Sequence record: MK380014.1
Length of the DNA stretch: 44,122 bases
Strand: one strand, 5' to 3'
Source of the DNA: Klebsiella phage K1-ULIP33
Shown here in pieces: positions 1-44,122 of this stretch (the first letter of the stretch is position 1; every line of letters starts with the position of its first letter). The notes under the pieces were generated by a model. It had not been told where the DNA came from, did not search any database, and saw only the letters and a list, made by a program, of their open reading frames with translations. A program made the position numbers and the translations under genes.

Positions 1-163
1 CTCGCCCGTCGCCCGTCCGGGGTTGTCCCCATAGGGTGCCTGTGTCATTTCTAGGGCCGGAGGGCGGGCCTAGGCCGTTTCTTAGTGAGGGCCAAAGGTT
101 CGCCTAGGCCAGCCGGAATGAGGGCCGCAGGAGGCCGCTTGCGCGGTGTGAGGGCGTGGGCTA
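1..163. repeat. left direct terminal repeat (DTR), identical to 43960..44122
   Basis: Bases 1..163 are repeated exactly at 43960..44122 and run off the window end there. The repeat is GC-rich, as in T7/SP6-type terminal redundancy. Confidence 0.9.
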
Positions 164-9841: not shown

Positions 9842-9854
9842 TAAGTCATGGGTT

Positions 9855-9870
9855 GTCCAACATGTTGGAC
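9855..9870. repeat. palindromic element GTCCAACATGTTGGAC (copy 6)
   Basis: 14 nt after the stop at 9841. Extended to GGTTGTCCAACATGTTGGACAGCC, which can form an 11-bp stem with one G.U. Confidence 0.85.
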
Positions 9871-9902
9871 AGCCTATCATCATATTAATTGGAGGTGACT
9901 CA

Positions 9903-12548
9903 ATGAAAGATATTGATTGGATTAAAGAAGCCCAAGGTCGTATCCTTGTGATGGATGCAGAAGCTAAAGGCCTACTTGATGCCATCCGATACGGACACCG
10001 CGAGGACGTGCATATCAGGATTAAAGAAGCCCAAGGTCGTATCCTTGTGATGGATGCAGAAGCTAAAGGCCTACTTGATGCCATCCGATACGGACACCGC
10101 GAGGACGTGCATATCATTTGCTGCATGGATTTGCTGACCACCGAAGAGTTCCTGTTCTTCGACCCATATGAGATGCGTGACCAGGAAGCGCGGGAGCGGC
10201 TCAAGGAGTGGGAAGGGTTTCAGGACGGCGACCTTGTGGATGGCGTGAACTTCCTCAAACACTGCGAGGCTATCGTATCACAGAACTTTCTAGGGTATGA
10301 CGGCTTGCTCTTTGAGAAGGCATTCCCGTCTGTGTGGCGGGGCTTTAACTACACAGAGAAGCGCGGGAAAGGCCGTCTGCGGGCCGATCTCTGCCCGGTA
10401 AGGGTTATGGATACCCTCGTTATGTCGCGCCTCCTGAACCCGGATAGGCGGCTTCCTCCGCAGGCTTACGCTAAAGGTATGGGTAACGTGGCCCCTCACT
10501 CAATCGAGGCGCACGGCATCCGCATCGGGCGCTATAAGCCGGAGAACGAAGACTGGTCTAAGCTGACAGACCACATGGTTCACCGTGTCCGCGAGGACGT
10601 GGCGATAGGTCGTGACCTGTTCCTTTGGCTACATAACGGCGAGTGGAGGGAGCACAAGGCGCGTGGCGTTAACCCTCGCACTGGCCTTGGCATCGAGACG
10701 GCATTCCACATGGAGTCGATCGTTGCGCTGGAAATGACCCGGCAGGCAGAGCGTGGCTTCCGGCTGGATATCGATAAGGCGCTGGCTCGATGCCAAGAAC
10801 TCGACGAGAAGATCGACGAGACAGTAGCAGCATTCCGCCCGCACATGCCTATGCGTATCAAGTCAAAGCCATTCAAGCCACAAGAGAAGGAGGAACAAAT
10901 CGATGCAGCAAACAGCTACGCGGCGTTACATTCGTTGGGTGCGAGGCTCTCAGAAGACGCCTTCTTACATGTGGAACGTAGGGGTGATAGGAAGACTGTA
11001 TGGGCCGTCACCACTAAGTCTGGGGATTGGTCTGCTACTGTCAAGAAAGATTTTCCTCACATTAGAGGAAATATTAATGACACGCCAAGCCTCAAGCACA
11101 TTGGCCCTTACTCGCCAGTCACCTTTGAAGAGATCCCACTAGGGAACCGTGACACGGTGAAGCAGGTACTCTATGACTTCGGGTGGCGAGGTGTAGAGTT
11201 CAACGATGCAGAGCAGGCATGCATCGACGAGAATGGTGTGCCGCCTAAACCTTGGAGTGGTAAGATCAATGAGAAGTCGATTGCTGTTTGGAAGGAAAGA
11301 GCCGCACGTGAAGGTAAAGCAGTCCCCGATTGGTGCTTGGGTATCGCTGCATGGTACATACTCGTATCCCGTCGCGGTCAGATCCTCAACCGTGGTGACG
11401 TTGAAGCCTTCAATCAGAAGGGAGCGTGGCCCTCGCAGGCTGGTGTACGAAAGTGTCGCGGCCTTATACCTGTAGCATTCAACAAGGAGTTAGGTATCAA
11501 TGCGCAAACGTACTACGAAACCTACGGGTGCTGGCCTACGTCTGATAAGGACGACGGTGAGTGGCGTGTTCCTGCCGTTGCTATCAGTATTGGAACTTCT
11601 ACCTTCCGTATGCGGCATCGTAATGTTGTTAATATCCCCGCTCGTGGCTTATACCCTCTTCGTGATTTATTCATTGCAGGGAAAGGTAAGCTAATCCTTG
11701 GCTGTGATGGTGCAGGTCTGGAATTGCGTGTATTATCGCACTTCATGAACGACCCTGAATACCAAGAGATCGTACTGCACGGTGACATTCACACCCATAA
11801 CCAGCTTAAAGCTGGCCTGCCGAAGCGTGACATGGCGAAGACTTTCATCTACGCCTTCCTGTATGGCTCCGGTATTTCCAACCTAGCGGCAGTTTGTGGC
11901 GTCACTGAGGAGGAGATGAAGGAAGTGGTGGCTCGTTTTGAGATTGAGCTACCCTCACTGGCTCGCCTCCGGGAGAATGTTATCGCTGCCGGAAACAAGT
12001 TCGGCTACCTGCAAGCGCCGGATGGTCATTGGGGCCGCATCCGTATGGCGAATGGTGAACTCAAAGAACACACCATGCTGAACGTGTTGCTCCAAATGAC
12101 AGGCTCCTTGTGTATGAAGTACGCACTGGTGAAAGCCTTTGCAGTCATGCGCAGAGAGGGAGTGGCGCTGGATGATATGGGAAATCCGTGTGGTGTGGCT
12201 AACGTCCACGATGAAATCCAGATGGAGGTGCCAGAAGATGAGGTCTTGTATCTTGACTATACAATACCTTTCACCTTAGAGGGGTTTGAAACTGAGAAGG
12301 CAGCCATTAAAGCCGCATTTGATCCAGAAGAAAAGCGGGTGCATACCGACGTTGATGGCCGTATGTGGTCTGCCGCGAATCTTATCAAGGTAGATGCCGA
12401 GGCAGGTGTTATTCATTGCCAACGTAAATACCATCGTGCTGGTCAAATCATAGCTGAGTCTATGACTTGGGCAGGTAAGTATTTAAACATGCGTTGCCCT
12501 ATGTCCGGGGAATTTAAGATCGGAAGTTCATGGGCTGAAACGCACTAA
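9903..12548 (+). CDS. DNA polymerase, family A (T7 gp5-like), carrying an internal 33-aa tandem duplication
   Basis: The Exo I motif ILVMDAEA is present twice. Pol motifs are present: DTLVMSRLL (A), KTFIYAFLYGSG (B), VHDEIQME (C). 881 aa. Confidence 0.95.
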   Translation: MKDIDWIKEAQGRILVMDAEAKGLLDAIRYGHREDVHIRIKEAQGRILVMDAEAKGLLDAIRYGHREDVHIICCMDLLTTEEFLFFDPYEMRDQEARERLKEWEGFQDGDLVDGVNFLKHCEAIVSQNFLGYDGLLFEKAFPSVWRGFNYTEKRGKGRLRADLCPVRVMDTLVMSRLLNPDRRLPPQAYAKGMGNVAPHSIEAHGIRIGRYKPENEDWSKLTDHMVHRVREDVAIGRDLFLWLHNGEWREHKARGVNPRTGLGIETAFHMESIVALEMTRQAERGFRLDIDKALARCQELDEKIDETVAAFRPHMPMRIKSKPFKPQEKEEQIDAANSYAALHSLGARLSEDAFLHVERRGDRKTVWAVTTKSGDWSATVKKDFPHIRGNINDTPSLKHIGPYSPVTFEEIPLGNRDTVKQVLYDFGWRGVEFNDAEQACIDENGVPPKPWSGKINEKSIAVWKERAAREGKAVPDWCLGIAAWYILVSRRGQILNRGDVEAFNQKGAWPSQAGVRKCRGLIPVAFNKELGINAQTYYETYGCWPTSDKDDGEWRVPAVAISIGTSTFRMRHRNVVNIPARGLYPLRDLFIAGKGKLILGCDGAGLELRVLSHFMNDPEYQEIVLHGDIHTHNQLKAGLPKRDMAKTFIYAFLYGSGISNLAAVCGVTEEEMKEVVARFEIELPSLARLRENVIAAGNKFGYLQAPDGHWGRIRMANGELKEHTMLNVLLQMTGSLCMKYALVKAFAVMRREGVALDDMGNPCGVANVHDEIQMEVPEDEVLYLDYTIPFTLEGFETEKAAIKAAFDPEEKRVHTDVDGRMWSAANLIKVDAEAGVIHCQRKYHRAGQIIAESMTWAGKYLNMRCPMSGEFKIGSSWAETH
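9921..10118. repeat. perfect 99-bp tandem direct duplication (2 units, 97/99 identical) inside the DNA polymerase gene
   Basis: Unit 1 (9921..10019) and unit 2 (10020..10118) differ only in their last 2 nt. Encodes IKEAQGRILVMDAEAKGLLDAIRYGHREDVHI twice. Confidence 0.9.
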
Positions 12549-12563
12549 CATGGGAAAAGGAAA

Positions 12564-13022
12564 ATGCAAGAGTGGGTTCGCATTACAAGCTATCCTAACT
12601 ATGCTGTGTCGAACGAAGGTGAGGTTAAGAATATTAATACAGGGTGTGTATTGCGCCCACTTACACTAACCAAAGGGTACTTAGGTGTTAGGCTATATCA
12701 CGAAGGTAACGGCAAGACGCTTAAGATTCATAGGCTTGTCGCTCTTGCCTTTCTTTCTAACCCTGATAACCTACCTCAGGTAAACCATATAGATGGTGAC
12801 AAGAGTAACAATGATGTTACCAACCTTGAGTGGTGCAGCAATGAATACAATATGCGGCACGCTGCTGACAATGACTTACTTAACAAAGAGACACAGTTTA
12901 AGCAGAAGTATGATCCGTCTGAGTTCCGTAAGTGCAAAGAAGAAGGTATGACCATCTCCGCTATTGCTCGTAAGTTTGGATGTAAGCGGGATACTGTATA
13001 CCGACTTTTAAGACTACGTTGA
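12564..13022 (+). CDS. HNH homing endonuclease (free-standing)
   Basis: Motif HRLVALAFLSNPDNLPQVNHIDGDKSNNDVTNLEW..N is typical of phage HNH/AP2-type endonucleases. Inserted directly after the DNA polymerase gene. Confidence 0.8.
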   Translation: MQEWVRITSYPNYAVSNEGEVKNINTGCVLRPLTLTKGYLGVRLYHEGNGKTLKIHRLVALAFLSNPDNLPQVNHIDGDKSNNDVTNLEWCSNEYNMRHAADNDLLNKETQFKQKYDPSEFRKCKEEGMTISAIARKFGCKRDTVYRLLRLR

Positions 13023-13536: not shown

Positions 13537-13557
13537 AATTAGGTGACACTATAGAAC
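13537..13557 (+). promoter_or_regulatory. SP6 promoter (AATTAGGTGACACTATAGAAC) followed by a conserved leader stem-loop
   Basis: Followed by AAGGGCA-gcaataggt-TGCCCTT and then GATTGTATAGTG. The module is duplicated at 18269. Confidence 0.8.
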
Positions 13558-13610
13558 AAAGGGCAGCAATAGGTTGCCCTTGATTGTATAGTGTAACAAA
13601 AGGAGGAATA

Positions 13611-14078
13611 ATGGAAATCTGGAAAGTGATATCAGAGTTTCCAGATTATGCCGTAAGTTCTCATGGTAGAGTTAAATCTCTGAGATATAATCGCATAATG
13701 TCTGGAGGCTTAGATGCTGATGGGTACGTCGTTGTAACGCTGAGATCTAACAAGAAACCAAAGACGCAGAAGGTGCATAGGCTGGTTGCAACTGCGTTTA
13801 TATCAAACCCTCTTTGTCTTCCAGAGGTTAACCACAAGAGTGAAATTAAGACGGACAACTTTGTCCAAAACTTGGAGTGGTGTACTAGCCAATACAACAC
13901 TGAGTATTCTCAAGCTAAAACTTATGAAATACTCACACCAAAAGGTGAGCGCATTACCGTAACAAATCTACGTAAGTTTTGCCGTGACAATAATTTATGT
14001 CAAAGTAATATGAACAAGGTATTTAACGGTAAAGCCTCACACCACAAAGGTTATCGTAAATATAATGGAGGTATTTAA
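13611..14078 (+). CDS. HNH homing endonuclease (second copy, free-standing)
   Basis: MEIWKVISEFPDYAVSSHGRVKSL...HRLVATAFISNPLCLPEVNHK..NLEW parallels the first HNH gene (..YPNYAVSNEGEVKNI..HRLVALAFLSNP..VNH). Has its own promoter. AAGGAGGA RBS. The track ORF starts 27 nt earlier, and I prefer the ATG at 13611. Confidence 0.8.
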   Translation: MEIWKVISEFPDYAVSSHGRVKSLRYNRIMSGGLDADGYVVVTLRSNKKPKTQKVHRLVATAFISNPLCLPEVNHKSEIKTDNFVQNLEWCTSQYNTEYSQAKTYEILTPKGERITVTNLRKFCRDNNLCQSNMNKVFNGKASHHKGYRKYNGGI

Positions 14079-17274: not shown

Positions 17275-18274
17275 GCTACGCTCCCTGTACAAAGACTCCG
17301 AGGTGCTGAGTGCAATTGAGCAGGCTACCGACGAGCACGGAAATGTTAACTACAATGAAACGGCACGCATCTTATCTGCGCATCCAGTGGGTAAGAAGAT
17401 CACGCGCCAACTGGCACGCTACTGGCATGGTCAGTTCAAGACGAAGAAGAAGAACGGCGATGCATATCAGTCACTCCTTCCAGAGAATAAGCGTATCAAA
17501 GAAGCACGCAAGCTGCGCACTCCTGATCGCTATGAAGATCTGGCTGTTGCACCAATGCCTGAGTCGGCTCATCGAAGCATACTGGTAATCCCTGATACCC
17601 ATGCTCCGTATGAGCACCCGGATACGCTGGAGTTTCTGGCAGCAGTGGCTGCGCGGTTCCGCCCGGATACCGTTGTCCACCTCGGAGATGAAGCGGACAA
17701 GCACGCTATGTCTTTCCACGACTCCGATCCCAACCTTGATTCCGCTGGCATGGAATTGGAGAAGGCACGTGTCTTCATGGCGAAGCTGCACGCAATGTTC
17801 CCGGTGATGCGCCTGTGTCACTCGAACCACGGCTCTATGCACTTCCGCAAGGCGCACTCGCACGGCATCCCTGTGCAATACCTCCGCACCTACCGCGAAG
17901 TGTTCTTCCCGCAAGGTGGCGGCGAGCGCTGGGAGTGGCAGCATACGCACGTCCTCGAACTGCCGAACGGTGAGCAGGTTGCCTTCAAGCACCAGCCTGC
18001 CGGGGCCGTGCTGGGTGACGCTGCACATGAGCGCATGAACTTGGTGTGTGGTCACTTGCATGGCAAAATGTCTATCGAGTATGCCCGGAATACGCATGAG
18101 CAGTATTGGGCCGCACAGGGCGGTTGTCTGGTAGATGAAGATTCTCGCGCCTTCTCTTATGGCAAGGAGTCCAAATACAAGCCAGCGCTTGGTTGCCTTG
18201 TGATTCTCGAAGGCGTACCGCAGATCATCCCGATGCAGACCAATAGCGACGGTCGCTGGGTTGGCAAGCTTTAA
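17267..18274 (+). CDS. calcineurin-like metallophosphoesterase
   Basis: Motifs LVIPDTHAPYEHPD, HLGDEADKH and CHSNHGSMH fit the metallophosphatase signature (DxH..GD..GNH). Probable TTG start at 17267, 6 nt after GGAGG. The upstream part of track ORF 17063 overlaps the resolvase gene. Confidence 0.65.
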   Translation: MGKLRSLYKDSEVLSAIEQATDEHGNVNYNETARILSAHPVGKKITRQLARYWHGQFKTKKKNGDAYQSLLPENKRIKEARKLRTPDRYEDLAVAPMPESAHRSILVIPDTHAPYEHPDTLEFLAAVAARFRPDTVVHLGDEADKHAMSFHDSDPNLDSAGMELEKARVFMAKLHAMFPVMRLCHSNHGSMHFRKAHSHGIPVQYLRTYREVFFPQGGGERWEWQHTHVLELPNGEQVAFKHQPAGAVLGDAAHERMNLVCGHLHGKMSIEYARNTHEQYWAAQGGCLVDEDSRAFSYGKESKYKPALGCLVILEGVPQIIPMQTNSDGRWVGKL

Positions 18275-18289
18275 GTGACACTATAGAAC
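18269..18289 (+). promoter_or_regulatory. SP6 promoter variant (CTTTAAGTGACACTATAGAAC) followed by a conserved leader stem-loop
   Basis: Followed by AAGGGCA-ggtgatgct-TGCCCTT and then GATTGTATATTG. Homologous to the 13537 module. Confidence 0.7.
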
Positions 18290-18341
18290 AAAGGGCAGGT
18301 GATGCTTGCCCTTGATTGTATATTGTTAACAGGAGGTAAAT

Positions 18342-25408: not shown

Positions 25409-27810
25409 TGGAAGTTCAAGGCTCATTAGGTAGGCAGATTCAAGGCATCAGCCAGCAACCGCCAGCCGTTCGCCTTGACGGGCAATGCACGGATATGGTT
25501 AACATGGTTCCAGATGTTGTTGATGGGACTAAGTCCCGCATGGGAACAACTCACCTGAACAAACTGATGGCAAAAGGCGATGACAACATGGCCTTCCACC
25601 ATTACCGTCGAGGTGACGGAGATGAGGAATACTTCTTCGTCATGAAGCAAGGTGCAATCCCTGAAATCTTTGATCGCATGGGTAATCGCTGCAATGTCAC
25701 CTCTTCCGACGCACCTATGGTCTACCTTAGTGAAGTGCAGAACCCAAGGGAAGATGTACAGTTCATGACTATTGCAGATGTAACATTCATGCTTAACCGT
25801 AGGAAGGTCGTCCGTGCTAGAGAGGATCGATCTCCAAAGGTAGACTCCACTGCCCTAGTCTTCTGTGCTTATGGTAATTACGGTACGAAGTACCAGATCA
25901 CTATCAACGGACAGGTTGCTGCCGAGTACAAGACAAAGGATGGTGGTGAAGCAAGTCATGTAGAGACGATCAGAACCGAGGTTATCGCAGAGCAGCTATT
26001 CCTGCAACTCCAGCAATGGGATGGTGTATCGCAGTACGACATTTACCGCATGGGTACGACTATCGTCATTACCCACCTTGACGGTAACACTGACTTCACT
26101 GTTAATACAGAGGACGGTGCGAAAGGCAGGGACTTGGTGGCTATCAAGTACAAAGTCACCTCTACTGACCTGCTGCCGAGTAAGGCACCAGAAGGCTACA
26201 AGGTGCAGGTATGGCCTACGGGCAGCAAGCCTGAGTCTCGCTACTGGCTTGTAGCAGAGAAATCCGAGGGCAACCTTGTTACGTGGAAGGAGACTATTGC
26301 AGCAGATGTGAAGTTGGGCTTTGACAAGAATACCATGCCTTACATCATCGAGCGCACAGGTATCGTCGGAGGTGTGGCGCAATTCAAGATTCGCCAAGGT
26401 GATTGGGAAGACCGCCGGGTCGGCGACGACTTGACTAACCCGATGCCCTCATTCATTGACGACGAGGTGCCGCAGCGCTTGGGTGGGGTGTTCCTGGTGC
26501 AGAACCGTCTTTGCCTCACAGCAGGCGAGGCAGTAATCATGTCCCGTACCTCCCACTTCTTTGACTTCTTCCGGTATACGGTAGTCTCTGCACTGGACAC
26601 CGACCCGATTGATATCTTCTCCGATGCAAGTGAGGTGTACCAGTTAAAGCACGCCATCACCTTGGACGGCGATACGGTGTTGTTCTCTGATAACTCTCAG
26701 TTCATCTTACCGGGAGATAAGGCACTGACCAAGGATAATGCATTGCTGAAACCGGCTACTGCCTTTGAGGTGAACAACAACGTTCGCCCGGTAGCTACAG
26801 GTGAGTCTGTAATGTTCGCTACAAGTGAAGGTTCGTACTCTGGTATCCGGGAGTTTTATACGGACTCCTATTCTGATACCAAGAAGGCACAGCCTATCAC
26901 GAGTCACGTCAATAAGTTGATTGAAGGCAACATCATCTCGATGGTGGCAAGTTCCAACATCAACCGCTTGTTCGTGATGGCGGATAAGAACCGCAATGTG
27001 GTCTACGTGTATGACTGGCTCTGGCAAGGTACTGACCGAGTGCAGGCAGCATGGCATCGCTGGGTGTGGCCCACTGACGTCAAGGTACGAGCGATGTTCT
27101 ACTCCAGTGAGGTGGTGTACATCATCATCGAGCGAGGTAGTCAAGGCTTATTCCTTGAGAGGATGGATATGGGTGACGCTATAGAGTACCACCTTGAAGA
27201 CCAGATTCGCTTAGACCGCAAGGCGCTCATTTCCTTTGCCTATGACGCTGCGTCAGATGGCTGGTATTCAAGTCAATTACCGTGGCTGCCTGAACACCCT
27301 GAGATGCTAGAGTGTGTCCTTACGCAAGGGTGGCCTGCCTATGTCGGTGGTTCTTTCCTGTTCCAACATGAAGATGAAGGTAACAGGTTGCATACCACCT
27401 TTGATCTTGGCGAAGAGAGCTCCCTCATTCATTGTGTGGTAGGCGAACATTACTCGCAAGAGTTTGAGCCCACGCCTGTGGTGATCAAGGATTCTCAAGG
27501 GCGCACCTCGTACATCGATACGCCTGTCATTGGACTTGTTCATCTCAACTTGGACAAGTATCCAGACTTCACCGTAGAGATCACGAATGCTTCCGGGCGC
27601 AAGCGCGTAGCTAAGGCATCGAACCGCATAGGTGGTGCCCGCAACAATATTGTTGGTTACGTCAAGCCGAAGGAGGGTATCTTCAAGTTCCCGCTCCGTG
27701 CCAAGAGCACAGATGCGACATACCGTATCAAGTCCGTAGCGCCGCACACCTTGCAGCTACGTGATATTGAATGGGAAGGCTCGTACAATCCAAGTAAGAG
27801 GAGGGTATAA
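25405..27810 (+). CDS. tail tubular protein B, T7 gp12-like
   Basis: About 800 aa, close to T7 gp12 in size. The ATG at 25405/25408 overlaps the upstream stop. Confidence 0.8.
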   Translation: MMEVQGSLGRQIQGISQQPPAVRLDGQCTDMVNMVPDVVDGTKSRMGTTHLNKLMAKGDDNMAFHHYRRGDGDEEYFFVMKQGAIPEIFDRMGNRCNVTSSDAPMVYLSEVQNPREDVQFMTIADVTFMLNRRKVVRAREDRSPKVDSTALVFCAYGNYGTKYQITINGQVAAEYKTKDGGEASHVETIRTEVIAEQLFLQLQQWDGVSQYDIYRMGTTIVITHLDGNTDFTVNTEDGAKGRDLVAIKYKVTSTDLLPSKAPEGYKVQVWPTGSKPESRYWLVAEKSEGNLVTWKETIAADVKLGFDKNTMPYIIERTGIVGGVAQFKIRQGDWEDRRVGDDLTNPMPSFIDDEVPQRLGGVFLVQNRLCLTAGEAVIMSRTSHFFDFFRYTVVSALDTDPIDIFSDASEVYQLKHAITLDGDTVLFSDNSQFILPGDKALTKDNALLKPATAFEVNNNVRPVATGESVMFATSEGSYSGIREFYTDSYSDTKKAQPITSHVNKLIEGNIISMVASSNINRLFVMADKNRNVVYVYDWLWQGTDRVQAAWHRWVWPTDVKVRAMFYSSEVVYIIIERGSQGLFLERMDMGDAIEYHLEDQIRLDRKALISFAYDAASDGWYSSQLPWLPEHPEMLECVLTQGWPAYVGGSFLFQHEDEGNRLHTTFDLGEESSLIHCVVGEHYSQEFEPTPVVIKDSQGRTSYIDTPVIGLVHLNLDKYPDFTVEITNASGRKRVAKASNRIGGARNNIVGYVKPKEGIFKFPLRAKSTDATYRIKSVAPHTLQLRDIEWEGSYNPSKRRV

Positions 27811-41618: not shown

Positions 41619-41699
41619 CACTAGGAGTGGCGTCAGCCACTCTTACGCAACTTTCTTCATAGGCATTCATGGTGGGTGCACATAAACAAAGGAGGTTAC

Positions 41700-43646
41700 A
41701 TGGCTTTAACTAGAGCAACATCGCCTACTCTTAACTTTGACACTGTAAGTCAAGCTGTCTCTTTTGGCACTAAGTTTAAGGTTGGTGATCGCATCTTTAT
41801 CTATGGCGATGAGGGTGTATCTTTTGACTACAGAACAGGATCTTACCTTGTAGACAATGGAACCGTATTTCAAGCAGGTGAGGGTTACTTGGTAAGGAAT
41901 TTTGAAGGGCCAGCCCGGTCTTCTTGGTTCTCTTCGTGGTCTGGTCTGGTGACATATATGTCACTGCCTGGCAGGTCTCTTATCATTGATAATGAAGTGA
42001 AGGCAACTTCTGTGATGTACTTGAAGTCCTTGTCTTCTATCAAATTCACTACAAGTGGTGTAATCATACCAAATGACACACCATCTCAGGTTATCAACAT
42101 ACTTGGGTCAGAACCTACGGCCTTTTTACCAATCGCAGCTAACATGTCAGCAGAGAGTGCACTGGTAACCTTTGCTGACGGCGCAGGTATATCTCCTGGT
42201 GACAATGTGGTGATTAAGTCTGACAGGCCGTGCGACGGCGGACCTAATAGCCACGGCGTCCGTGCCTCGGTCCTTCGCAGGGTGTTAGCTACAACAAGTA
42301 CGGAGGGAGTAACCACGGCACTTCTGGACCAGTCTGTACACTACAACTTCTTGGTATCAGAGAACGCGGTTATCGGTAAGTACAACCCTGTCGAGGATGT
42401 AGAGCTTGTAGATGTGAAGATAAACAAGGTTGCTGACTCTAATGCTCTATTTACCGTAGGCATCTCCATGCAATACTGCAATAACGTGCGTATCAAAGGT
42501 GGTGTGATTCAAGGTAGTAAGCGTGCCGGGTCTGGAGATATCACTGGTCGCTCTGCCATCAAGTTTGCTAACTGTCGCAACTCCTATGTTGACGGCACAC
42601 ACTTCTATGCCATTGGCTGGTACGGTGTGGAGGTGCTTGGGGCATCTGAGGATATCCAGGTAAGGAACATCAAAGCCTGGGATGTTCGACATGCCATTAG
42701 TCTTAACTGGCAGGCAACCACAGATGGCCCTAAGTGGGGTGAACCTATCACCTTCAAGGCCATTGATTGTATTGCACATAAGACTATCCTGTCGGGATTC
42801 GACACCCATGATATCGGCAAGAGAATCCAGTTCATCCGTTGTATCTCTTACGATGCAGGTGATGATGGCTTTCAAGCTCGTGCTCACAACGTTGAGTACA
42901 TCGGATGTAAGGCATACAGACCTAAGCTAGATGGTTTTGCATCAAACACTAATGTTAGCTTCCCGATATACAGGGAATGCATTGCCTACAACGCCCCGCG
43001 TGCTGGGTTCAACGCATCGTATGGTGGTGGTCACATCTATGACTGCGAGGCACACTTCTGTGCAGAGGGTATTAGGACCAGTGGTGGTACGGTGCAAGGC
43101 GGTCGGTACACCAACAACTCCAACGTTGATATCTTCATCACCAAGGATGTTGCAGGTACTCAGCAGACTCCTCTCAACATCTCCGAGGCAAGCCTACGGT
43201 ACGATGGTAATGGTCGTGCTGTGTACTTCCACGGTAAGATGGGTATCGACCCTGCACTTGTCACCATCTCTGATTGTGACATGACAGGTCACGGTCTTGC
43301 CTGGGCATCACTCTCTGGATACACGGTGCAACCTACACCTCCTCGTATGAGCAGGAACACCCTGGACGATGTGAACGTCAGAGGCATCGCAACCCTGGTT
43401 GCTGGCACTGCCACCGTCAATGCTCGTGTGAGAGGTCAGTTTAGCTCTAACGCAAACACCTTTAAGTGGGTGTCTGAGATTAAGCTGACCAGGCTGACCT
43501 ACCCAAGCAATGCAGGACCTGTGTCTGTGACAGCAGTCACTCAGGATGCAAGCGTACCAACACCTAACCCGGACCTGAACTCTTTCACCATTAAGAGTGC
43601 AAACGCAGCTGATGTGTCCCAGGTTATGTGGGAGATATTCCTATAA
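41700..43646 (+). CDS. tailspike (receptor-binding, beta-helix, probable polysaccharide depolymerase)
   Basis: 648 aa. RBS AAAGGAGGTTACATG. The central region has parallel beta-helix-like repeats (..NNVRIKGGVIQGS.., ..NCRNSYVDGTHFYAIGWYGVEV..). It is the last gene before the right DTR, as in SP6/K1-5-type phages. The track ORF starts 24 nt upstream on a weaker ATG. Confidence 0.8.
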   Translation: MALTRATSPTLNFDTVSQAVSFGTKFKVGDRIFIYGDEGVSFDYRTGSYLVDNGTVFQAGEGYLVRNFEGPARSSWFSSWSGLVTYMSLPGRSLIIDNEVKATSVMYLKSLSSIKFTTSGVIIPNDTPSQVINILGSEPTAFLPIAANMSAESALVTFADGAGISPGDNVVIKSDRPCDGGPNSHGVRASVLRRVLATTSTEGVTTALLDQSVHYNFLVSENAVIGKYNPVEDVELVDVKINKVADSNALFTVGISMQYCNNVRIKGGVIQGSKRAGSGDITGRSAIKFANCRNSYVDGTHFYAIGWYGVEVLGASEDIQVRNIKAWDVRHAISLNWQATTDGPKWGEPITFKAIDCIAHKTILSGFDTHDIGKRIQFIRCISYDAGDDGFQARAHNVEYIGCKAYRPKLDGFASNTNVSFPIYRECIAYNAPRAGFNASYGGGHIYDCEAHFCAEGIRTSGGTVQGGRYTNNSNVDIFITKDVAGTQQTPLNISEASLRYDGNGRAVYFHGKMGIDPALVTISDCDMTGHGLAWASLSGYTVQPTPPRMSRNTLDDVNVRGIATLVAGTATVNARVRGQFSSNANTFKWVSEIKLTRLTYPSNAGPVSVTAVTQDASVPTPNPDLNSFTIKSANAADVSQVMWEIFL

Positions 43647-43959: not shown

Positions 43960-44122
43960 CTCGCCCGTCGCCCGTCCGGGGTTGTCCCCATAGGGTGCCT
44001 GTGTCATTTCTAGGGCCGGAGGGCGGGCCTAGGCCGTTTCTTAGTGAGGGCCAAAGGTTCGCCTAGGCCAGCCGGAATGAGGGCCGCAGGAGGCCGCTTG
44101 CGCGGTGTGAGGGCGTGGGCTA
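43960..44122. repeat. right direct terminal repeat (DTR)
   Basis: Identical to 1..163. It could be longer, since the window ends inside or at the repeat. Confidence 0.9.

Follow-up and report, generated by a model that had tools for sequence, protein, structure and literature searches.

The stretch of DNA analysed here, called the window, comprises the 44,122 bp of Klebsiella phage K1-ULIP33 (MK380014.1) and is a complete, finished phage genome that was re-opened at its physical ends. The gene of interest codes for a family A DNA polymerase resembling T7 gp5, and 16 nt into this ORF there begins a tandem repeat composed of two copies of a 99-nt unit. The features on which the argument depends are as follows.

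1..163, + strand: left direct terminal repeat (1-163 equals 43960-44122 at 100%; the Logan circle described below holds one copy)
9903..12548, + strand: DNA polymerase ORF, family A, T7 gp5-like (881 aa as written, 848 aa minus one unit)
9919..10017, + strand: copy 1 of the 99-nt unit (TRF and repeat search, 100% identity; relatives are gapped by 99 nt here in alignment)
10018..10116, + strand: copy 2 of the 99-nt unit (runs on into native polymerase sequence; homologues align to this copy)
10003..10032, + strand: novel junction …GCATATCA|GGATTAAAG…, with the break between 10017 and 10018
43960..44122, + strand: right direct terminal repeat (identical to 1-163)

The repeat is reported by TRF at 9919-10116 with a period of 99, 2.0 copies, 100% matches, 0 indels and a score of 396. 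A repeat search of the window likewise pairs 9919-10017 with 10018-10116 at 100% identity and a spacing of 99, such that the copies abut. These results bear out a previous sequence-only reading of this DNA, which had described a tandem 99-bp duplication near the start of the polymerase gene. That reading had placed the units at 9921-10019 and 10020-10118, which is the same repeat taken in a register 2 nt too late, and this shift is the reason why the last 2 nt of its units appeared to differ. Its statement that the duplication is in frame and lies within the polymerase also stands, since the ORF reads the repeated peptide twice: the 881-aa translation runs MKDIDW-[IKEAQGRILVMDAEAKGLLDAIRYGHREDVHI]-R-[same 32 aa]-ICCMDL…, with the frame maintained and a single residue differing at the junction (W to R).

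The repeat spans 2 x 99 nt precisely. Microhomology at its edges amounts to 0 nt on the left and 0 nt on the right, a value that is expected at about 56% of random cut points and is only mildly diagnostic. When the entire 44,122-bp window is examined for perfect tandem duplications with periods of 30-399 nt, the 99-nt repeat is the only one present, and a perfect repeat of this length cannot be attributed to chance. Either copy can be the surplus unit, copies 1 and 2 being equally eligible, and the junction at 10003..10032 is the only sequence that a single-copy genome would not contain.

The polymerase and its exonuclease motif

Assignment of the encoded protein to family A is based on the PF00476 domain that it carries. 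Sequence searches of the PDB match it to T7 gp5 (E 5e-32 for a single-sequence query and 5e-49 for a profile query), and a Foldseek search with the predicted model likewise returns T7 gp5 structures as the best matches (E 1.7e-27, TM 0.72). A phmmer search of the PDB with the N-terminal 299 aa gave no match, and the full-length and profile HMMER searches left the first ~86 residues or profile positions unaligned to T7 gp5. As a result, the equivalence of the Exo I motif with that of T7 rests on its invariance and on the fold model.

The motif in question is D18/E20 in native numbering (VMDAEA), and these two residues are invariant in 29 homologues with identities down to ~49%. In the 881-aa form they become D51/E53, which the AlphaFold model places with high pLDDT on strand E47-54, the first strand of the exonuclease domain. 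The alignment to T7 gp5 covers the Exo II/III region (T7 residues 53-257). The exonuclease-dead mutant of T7 gp5 is D5A/E7A (PDB entry titles). The phage peptide resembles the Exo I site of the T7 3'-5' exonuclease (D5/E7) in presenting an invariant DxE, which lies on the first beta-strand in a fold like that of T7 gp5. It differs in that the SP6-like enzyme has ~13 extra N-terminal residues ahead of the motif. We therefore agree with the earlier proposal that the repeated peptide holds the Exo I DxE motif.

The AlphaFold2 model of the 881-aa form has a mean pLDDT of 84 and a pTM of 0.79. Residues 1-35 fall below a pLDDT of 50, and copy 2 builds the native first strand (E47-54) with a pLDDT of ~92; the homologues in the alignment cover copy 2 only, and the model is biased accordingly toward copy 2 as the native strand. 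It had been suggested from the DNA that the duplication inserts a second metal-binding motif into the proofreading domain and thereby alters the mutation rate. This suggestion is not supported, because the duplication is missing from an independent assembly of an identical genome (see below), and because the extra copy corresponds to residues 7-38, an appendage at the extreme N-terminus that is modeled with low confidence by the biased prediction. Were the duplication real, its likeliest effect in light of the model would be to add a flexible tail of 33 residues at the N-terminus rather than a second active site.

Two neighboring features of this gene deserve mention in their own right. A hairpin at 9843-9891 (core arms 9848-9877) lies directly upstream of the polymerase ribosome-binding site and has a perfect 13-bp core stem, with an MFE of -27.6 kcal/mol and a z of -5.2 relative to shuffled sequences; it may serve as an intergenic terminator/attenuator or as a site processed by RNase III. 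Two HNH/NUMOD4 homing-endonuclease-like ORFs, at 12564-13022 and ~13611-14078, immediately follow the polymerase. A relative with 98% identity (L008) has a further HNH gene (L008 7487-7987), which divides the primase-helicase gene into ORFs of 398 and 270 aa.

Copy number in independent assemblies and relatives

The best homologue of the polymerase (P0001) has 848 aa and matches residues 40-881 of the window protein with 100% identity. It is encoded on SRR7779057_55, a contig from Logan, in which public sequencing runs have been assembled independently at k=31. We rebuilt this contig from its overlapping pieces L011 (1-19440), L007 (17955-40501) and L012 (31376-43890). The contig is 43,890 nt long and its last 30 nt are the same as its first 30 nt. 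An end overlap of k-1 bases is what a circular path leaves behind, so the contig represents a circle of 43,860 bp, and precisely this number is obtained when one terminal repeat (163) and one unit (99) are subtracted from 44,122. Furthermore, once rotated, the circle aligns with 0 mismatches and 0 indels to the window from which one terminal repeat and one unit have been removed. None of the 30 possible junction-spanning 31-mers is present in the contig, whose closure point corresponds to window positions 25908-25937, far from the repeat.

Zero differences over 43.9 kb, compared to 3-7% in the next-closest public genomes, indicate that run SRR7779057 contains the same phage isolate, and the run and the deposited sequence presumably derive from one phage stock. 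No paper naming this run accession was found in the searchable literature. The sequence-only reading had held that a single 99-bp unit in the primary data would expose the repeat as an assembly artefact, and the independent Logan assembly, with its one copy, effectively provides that result.

A k=31 assembler might be thought to collapse a true tandem repeat silently. We considered and rejected this explanation after building de Bruijn graphs of both the two-copy and the single-copy genome, which revealed that a fixed duplication makes branch nodes at the unit boundaries. The single-copy circle has 0 branching nodes at any k from 31 to 127. In contrast, adding the second unit introduces two branching nodes at the repeat unit, an in-branch and an out-branch, at every k up to 100, and at k=31 these nodes start at 9919 and 9988. 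If the duplication were fixed, a k=31 assembler that does not resolve repeats would break its contigs at the unit, and the Logan contig instead reads through. This graph logic, rather than a read count, leads us to infer that the junction k-mers are missing from the SRR7779057 reads, or are rare enough to be cleaned as errors, given that Logan graph cleaning could drop a junction of low frequency.

Public relatives are equally uniform. The closest public genomes are those of SP6-like Klebsiella phages (Molineuxvirinae) with 93-97% identity, and all eight GenBank relatives (Kpp-61, KpnP_VR702, cp4, vB_KpnP_HY, K44PH129C1, Koku, pKP-M186-2.1 and IME184) carry a single copy, as had been anticipated for SP6-like phages when the repeat was first described. 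In seven of the eight, the full 1001-nt query around the repeat is matched by 902 nt, which is 99 fewer; in IME184, query positions 136-1001 (866 nt) are matched by 767 nt, again 99 fewer. A multiple alignment with four of these relatives contains one clean 99-column gap and is collinear elsewhere. That every relative is single-copy led us to reject the idea of an old, tolerated feature common to this group. Three further independent assemblies that are 98-99% identical (Logan SRR35866211, ENA ERZ1745406 and ENA ERZ27311609) have one copy each.

The protein data follow the same pattern. The polymerases of K44PH129C1 and vB_KpnP_HY have 848 aa, that of SP6 has 849 aa and that of K1-5 has 846 aa. 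Among the best 120 homologues from a search of 5.8 billion proteins, none of those with at least 76% identity and at least 95% query coverage exceeds 850 aa, and no close full-length homologue has the additional 33 aa. The 90%-identity cluster containing the best match has 542 members, and among the 15 listed, 12 have 848-849 aa and 3 are shorter (624-639 aa). An exact look-up of the 881-aa protein found no record of it anywhere. Likewise, a 38-mer spanning the junction had no match in viral contigs, and a 24-mer spanning it had none in the viral, genome and metagenome contig collections.

Two of the relatives, PQ570679.1 (Kpp-61) and MZ398244.1 (IME184), have a DNA polymerase annotation that is split into two CDS, and the first polymerase CDS of Kpp-61 stops at 11091 rather than at ~11718. 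These split annotations may reflect a frameshift or sequencing error, or an insertion.

Origin of the repeat

The values 21, 33, 55, 77, 99 and 127 in SPAdes, and …79, 99, 119 and 141 in MEGAHIT, are the standard k-lists of these assemblers. The length of the repeat matches one such de Bruijn k value, with the proviso that the k used for the record may differ. Taken together with the data described above, this match makes it very probable that the tandem repeat is a finishing artefact, in which an untrimmed k=99 contig-end overlap was joined head-to-tail, and that it does not belong to the phage genome. As a biological event, the duplication is almost certainly not real.

The proposed course of events is simple. 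Short reads from a terminally redundant phage would yield a 'circular' de Bruijn contig in which the last k bases equal the first k bases. For this phage, k would have been 99 and both ends of the contig would have fallen within the polymerase gene. The contig would then have been closed and re-opened at the true genome ends, with the 163-bp terminal repeat added and the 99-nt end overlap left untrimmed, and the overlap would thus persist as two head-to-tail copies in the interior of the sequence. We infer the assembler, the k value and the re-orientation step for this record. The position of the repeat is arbitrary. A 99-nt insertion is a multiple of 3 and leaves the frame open, such that the polymerase is called 33 aa too long, and for the same reason the intact ORF carries no weight as evidence of authenticity. 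What we find is what an artefact of this type would leave behind: identical abutting copies, a length equal to a k value, absence from an independent assembly, and a genome re-opened after assembly. That the genome ends were set in a separate step follows from the short-read assembly, which is circular and has one copy of the terminal repeat.

The features of the repeat fit a finishing error that is already known. In a published workflow, PhageTerm 'automatically rearranges the genome sequence' to begin at the termini. Contig-end overlaps of length k have been described that, like the repeat examined here, are perfect, are equal in length to the assembler k, occur at the contig start and end, and need trimming before the contig is re-opened. 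The published overlaps are 127 bp long and are located at contig ends, whereas the present one is 99 nt, has been moved into the interior by re-orientation, and mimics an in-frame gene duplication. Sanger sequencing has exposed internal repeats of ~79 bp as artefacts in Klebsiella autographivirus genomes assembled from short reads (PMC10438801). Those przondoviruses (assembled with Shovill/SPAdes) are also Autographiviridae of Klebsiella with direct terminal repeats, and they too exhibited a short perfect repeat inside a finished genome, in their case one unsupported by read depth (PMC10438801). Their ~79-bp repeats were situated near or within the terminal-repeat region, whereas the present repeat is 99 nt long and resides ~10 kb into the genome in the polymerase gene. 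A literature search for a '99 bp' overlap in connection with SPAdes and phage returned unrelated uses of '99 bp' only.

Genuine phage duplications that arise by slipped-strand or microhomology-mediated events can also be head-to-tail, in frame and composed of identical copies. These events are expected to leave short direct repeats at the boundaries, and none are present here (0 nt on both sides); the copy is also missing from independent data for the same genome. A real duplication would moreover be expected to show its junction in independent data for the phage or its relatives, and the unit is single-copy everywhere.

We consider a genuine duplication of either kind discussed below, fixed or minority, to be very improbable overall. 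The more credible version, which we nevertheless regard as very unlikely, is that a 99-bp duplication arose very recently and became fixed in the deposited stock, after or independently of the stock that gave rise to SRR7779057. The perfect identity of the copies would suit such an event, and a derivative stock would be expected to match elsewhere in the genome. The ORF remains open, and the insertion is confined to the extreme N-terminus, where the model suggests that it could be tolerated (low pLDDT for residues 1-35, with copy 2 forming the native strand E47-54). The open frame is weightless, however, for a length that is a multiple of 3, and an identical genome assembles without the second copy. 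Moreover, the length equals a standard assembler k, the microhomology that a slipped-strand event would be expected to leave is absent, and the junction is seen in no relative, metagenome or other assembly. In its most specific form, this account envisions that the deposited stock truly carries a 99-bp duplication only days old, formed independently of microhomology and encoding a 33-aa N-terminal tail with a spare Exo I motif, and this we give only a slim chance. If it were true, the duplication would be tolerated because copy 2 rebuilds the native exonuclease strand, and it might modulate proofreading or polymerase levels.

Less probable still, indeed barely credible, is a real minority variant that one assembler picked up and that Logan filtered as a low-coverage branch. 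High-titre phage lysates do carry rare rearrangements, and graph cleaning can remove low-coverage connections, such that the Logan contig is compatible with a rare junction. But a consensus assembler would not normally favor a minority loop, the exact 99-nt length would be left as a coincidence, and supporting sequence was found in none of the viral, genome and metagenome collections. Perhaps some other non-biological error occurred, such as a cut-and-paste mistake at re-orientation, contigs merged with their overlap kept, or an error of long-read polishing. All of the evidence against authenticity applies equally to such an error, and the genome was clearly re-opened, with terminal repeats added by hand or by software. 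Yet the precise 99-nt length speaks for a k-mer overlap in particular, and the lack of any other difference from the independent assembly counts against sloppy polishing; we give an error of this sort a minimal likelihood. An untrimmed k=99 end overlap thus remains our preferred explanation.

The biological significance of the repeat is therefore close to nil, and the practical value of the finding lies in curation. The record probably exceeds the true genome length of 44,023 bp by 99 bp and the true polymerase length of 848 aa by 33 aa. A k=99 overlap that falls in frame is never flagged by gene callers. The case also suggests an inexpensive check for any suspicious perfect repeat in a phage record, which is to ask whether the length equals a common k (55, 77, 99 or 127), whether microhomology is zero, and whether an independent assembly of public reads closes into a circle that is shorter by exactly the repeat length.

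Other features of the genome

Just inside the left terminal repeat, at 207-332, are ~11 imperfect copies of a 12-nt unit, TACCTTAGTGAC, with 63% matches. This array resembles the short repeat arrays found near the concatemer junctions of T7/SP6-like phages. An early gene at ~2125-2472 (L007 2223-2570) carries the Ocr domain PF08684 of the T7 DNA-mimic anti-restriction protein.

SP6-type promoters (ATTTAGGTGACACTATAGAA, with at most 3 mismatches) occur at 11 sites between 6574 and 41202 (for example 8845, 13022, 23350 and 41183), all on the + strand, where 0 would be expected by chance. These 11 rightward promoters confirm an SP6-like transcription programme. A 56-nt module is present twice, at 13539-13594 and 18271-18326, with 86% identity between the copies; in each copy an SP6-type promoter precedes a GC-rich hairpin (GGGCAGC…GTTGCCC), and a conserved tail completes the module.

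Finally, the tailspike ORF at 41676-43646 contains K1-lyase N, Rider and C domains (PF24145, PF24149 and PF24146), a domain composition that, judged from sequence, is in keeping with a phage specific to capsule type K1 of Klebsiella. The host of Kpp-61, the closest relative, is of the K1 type.
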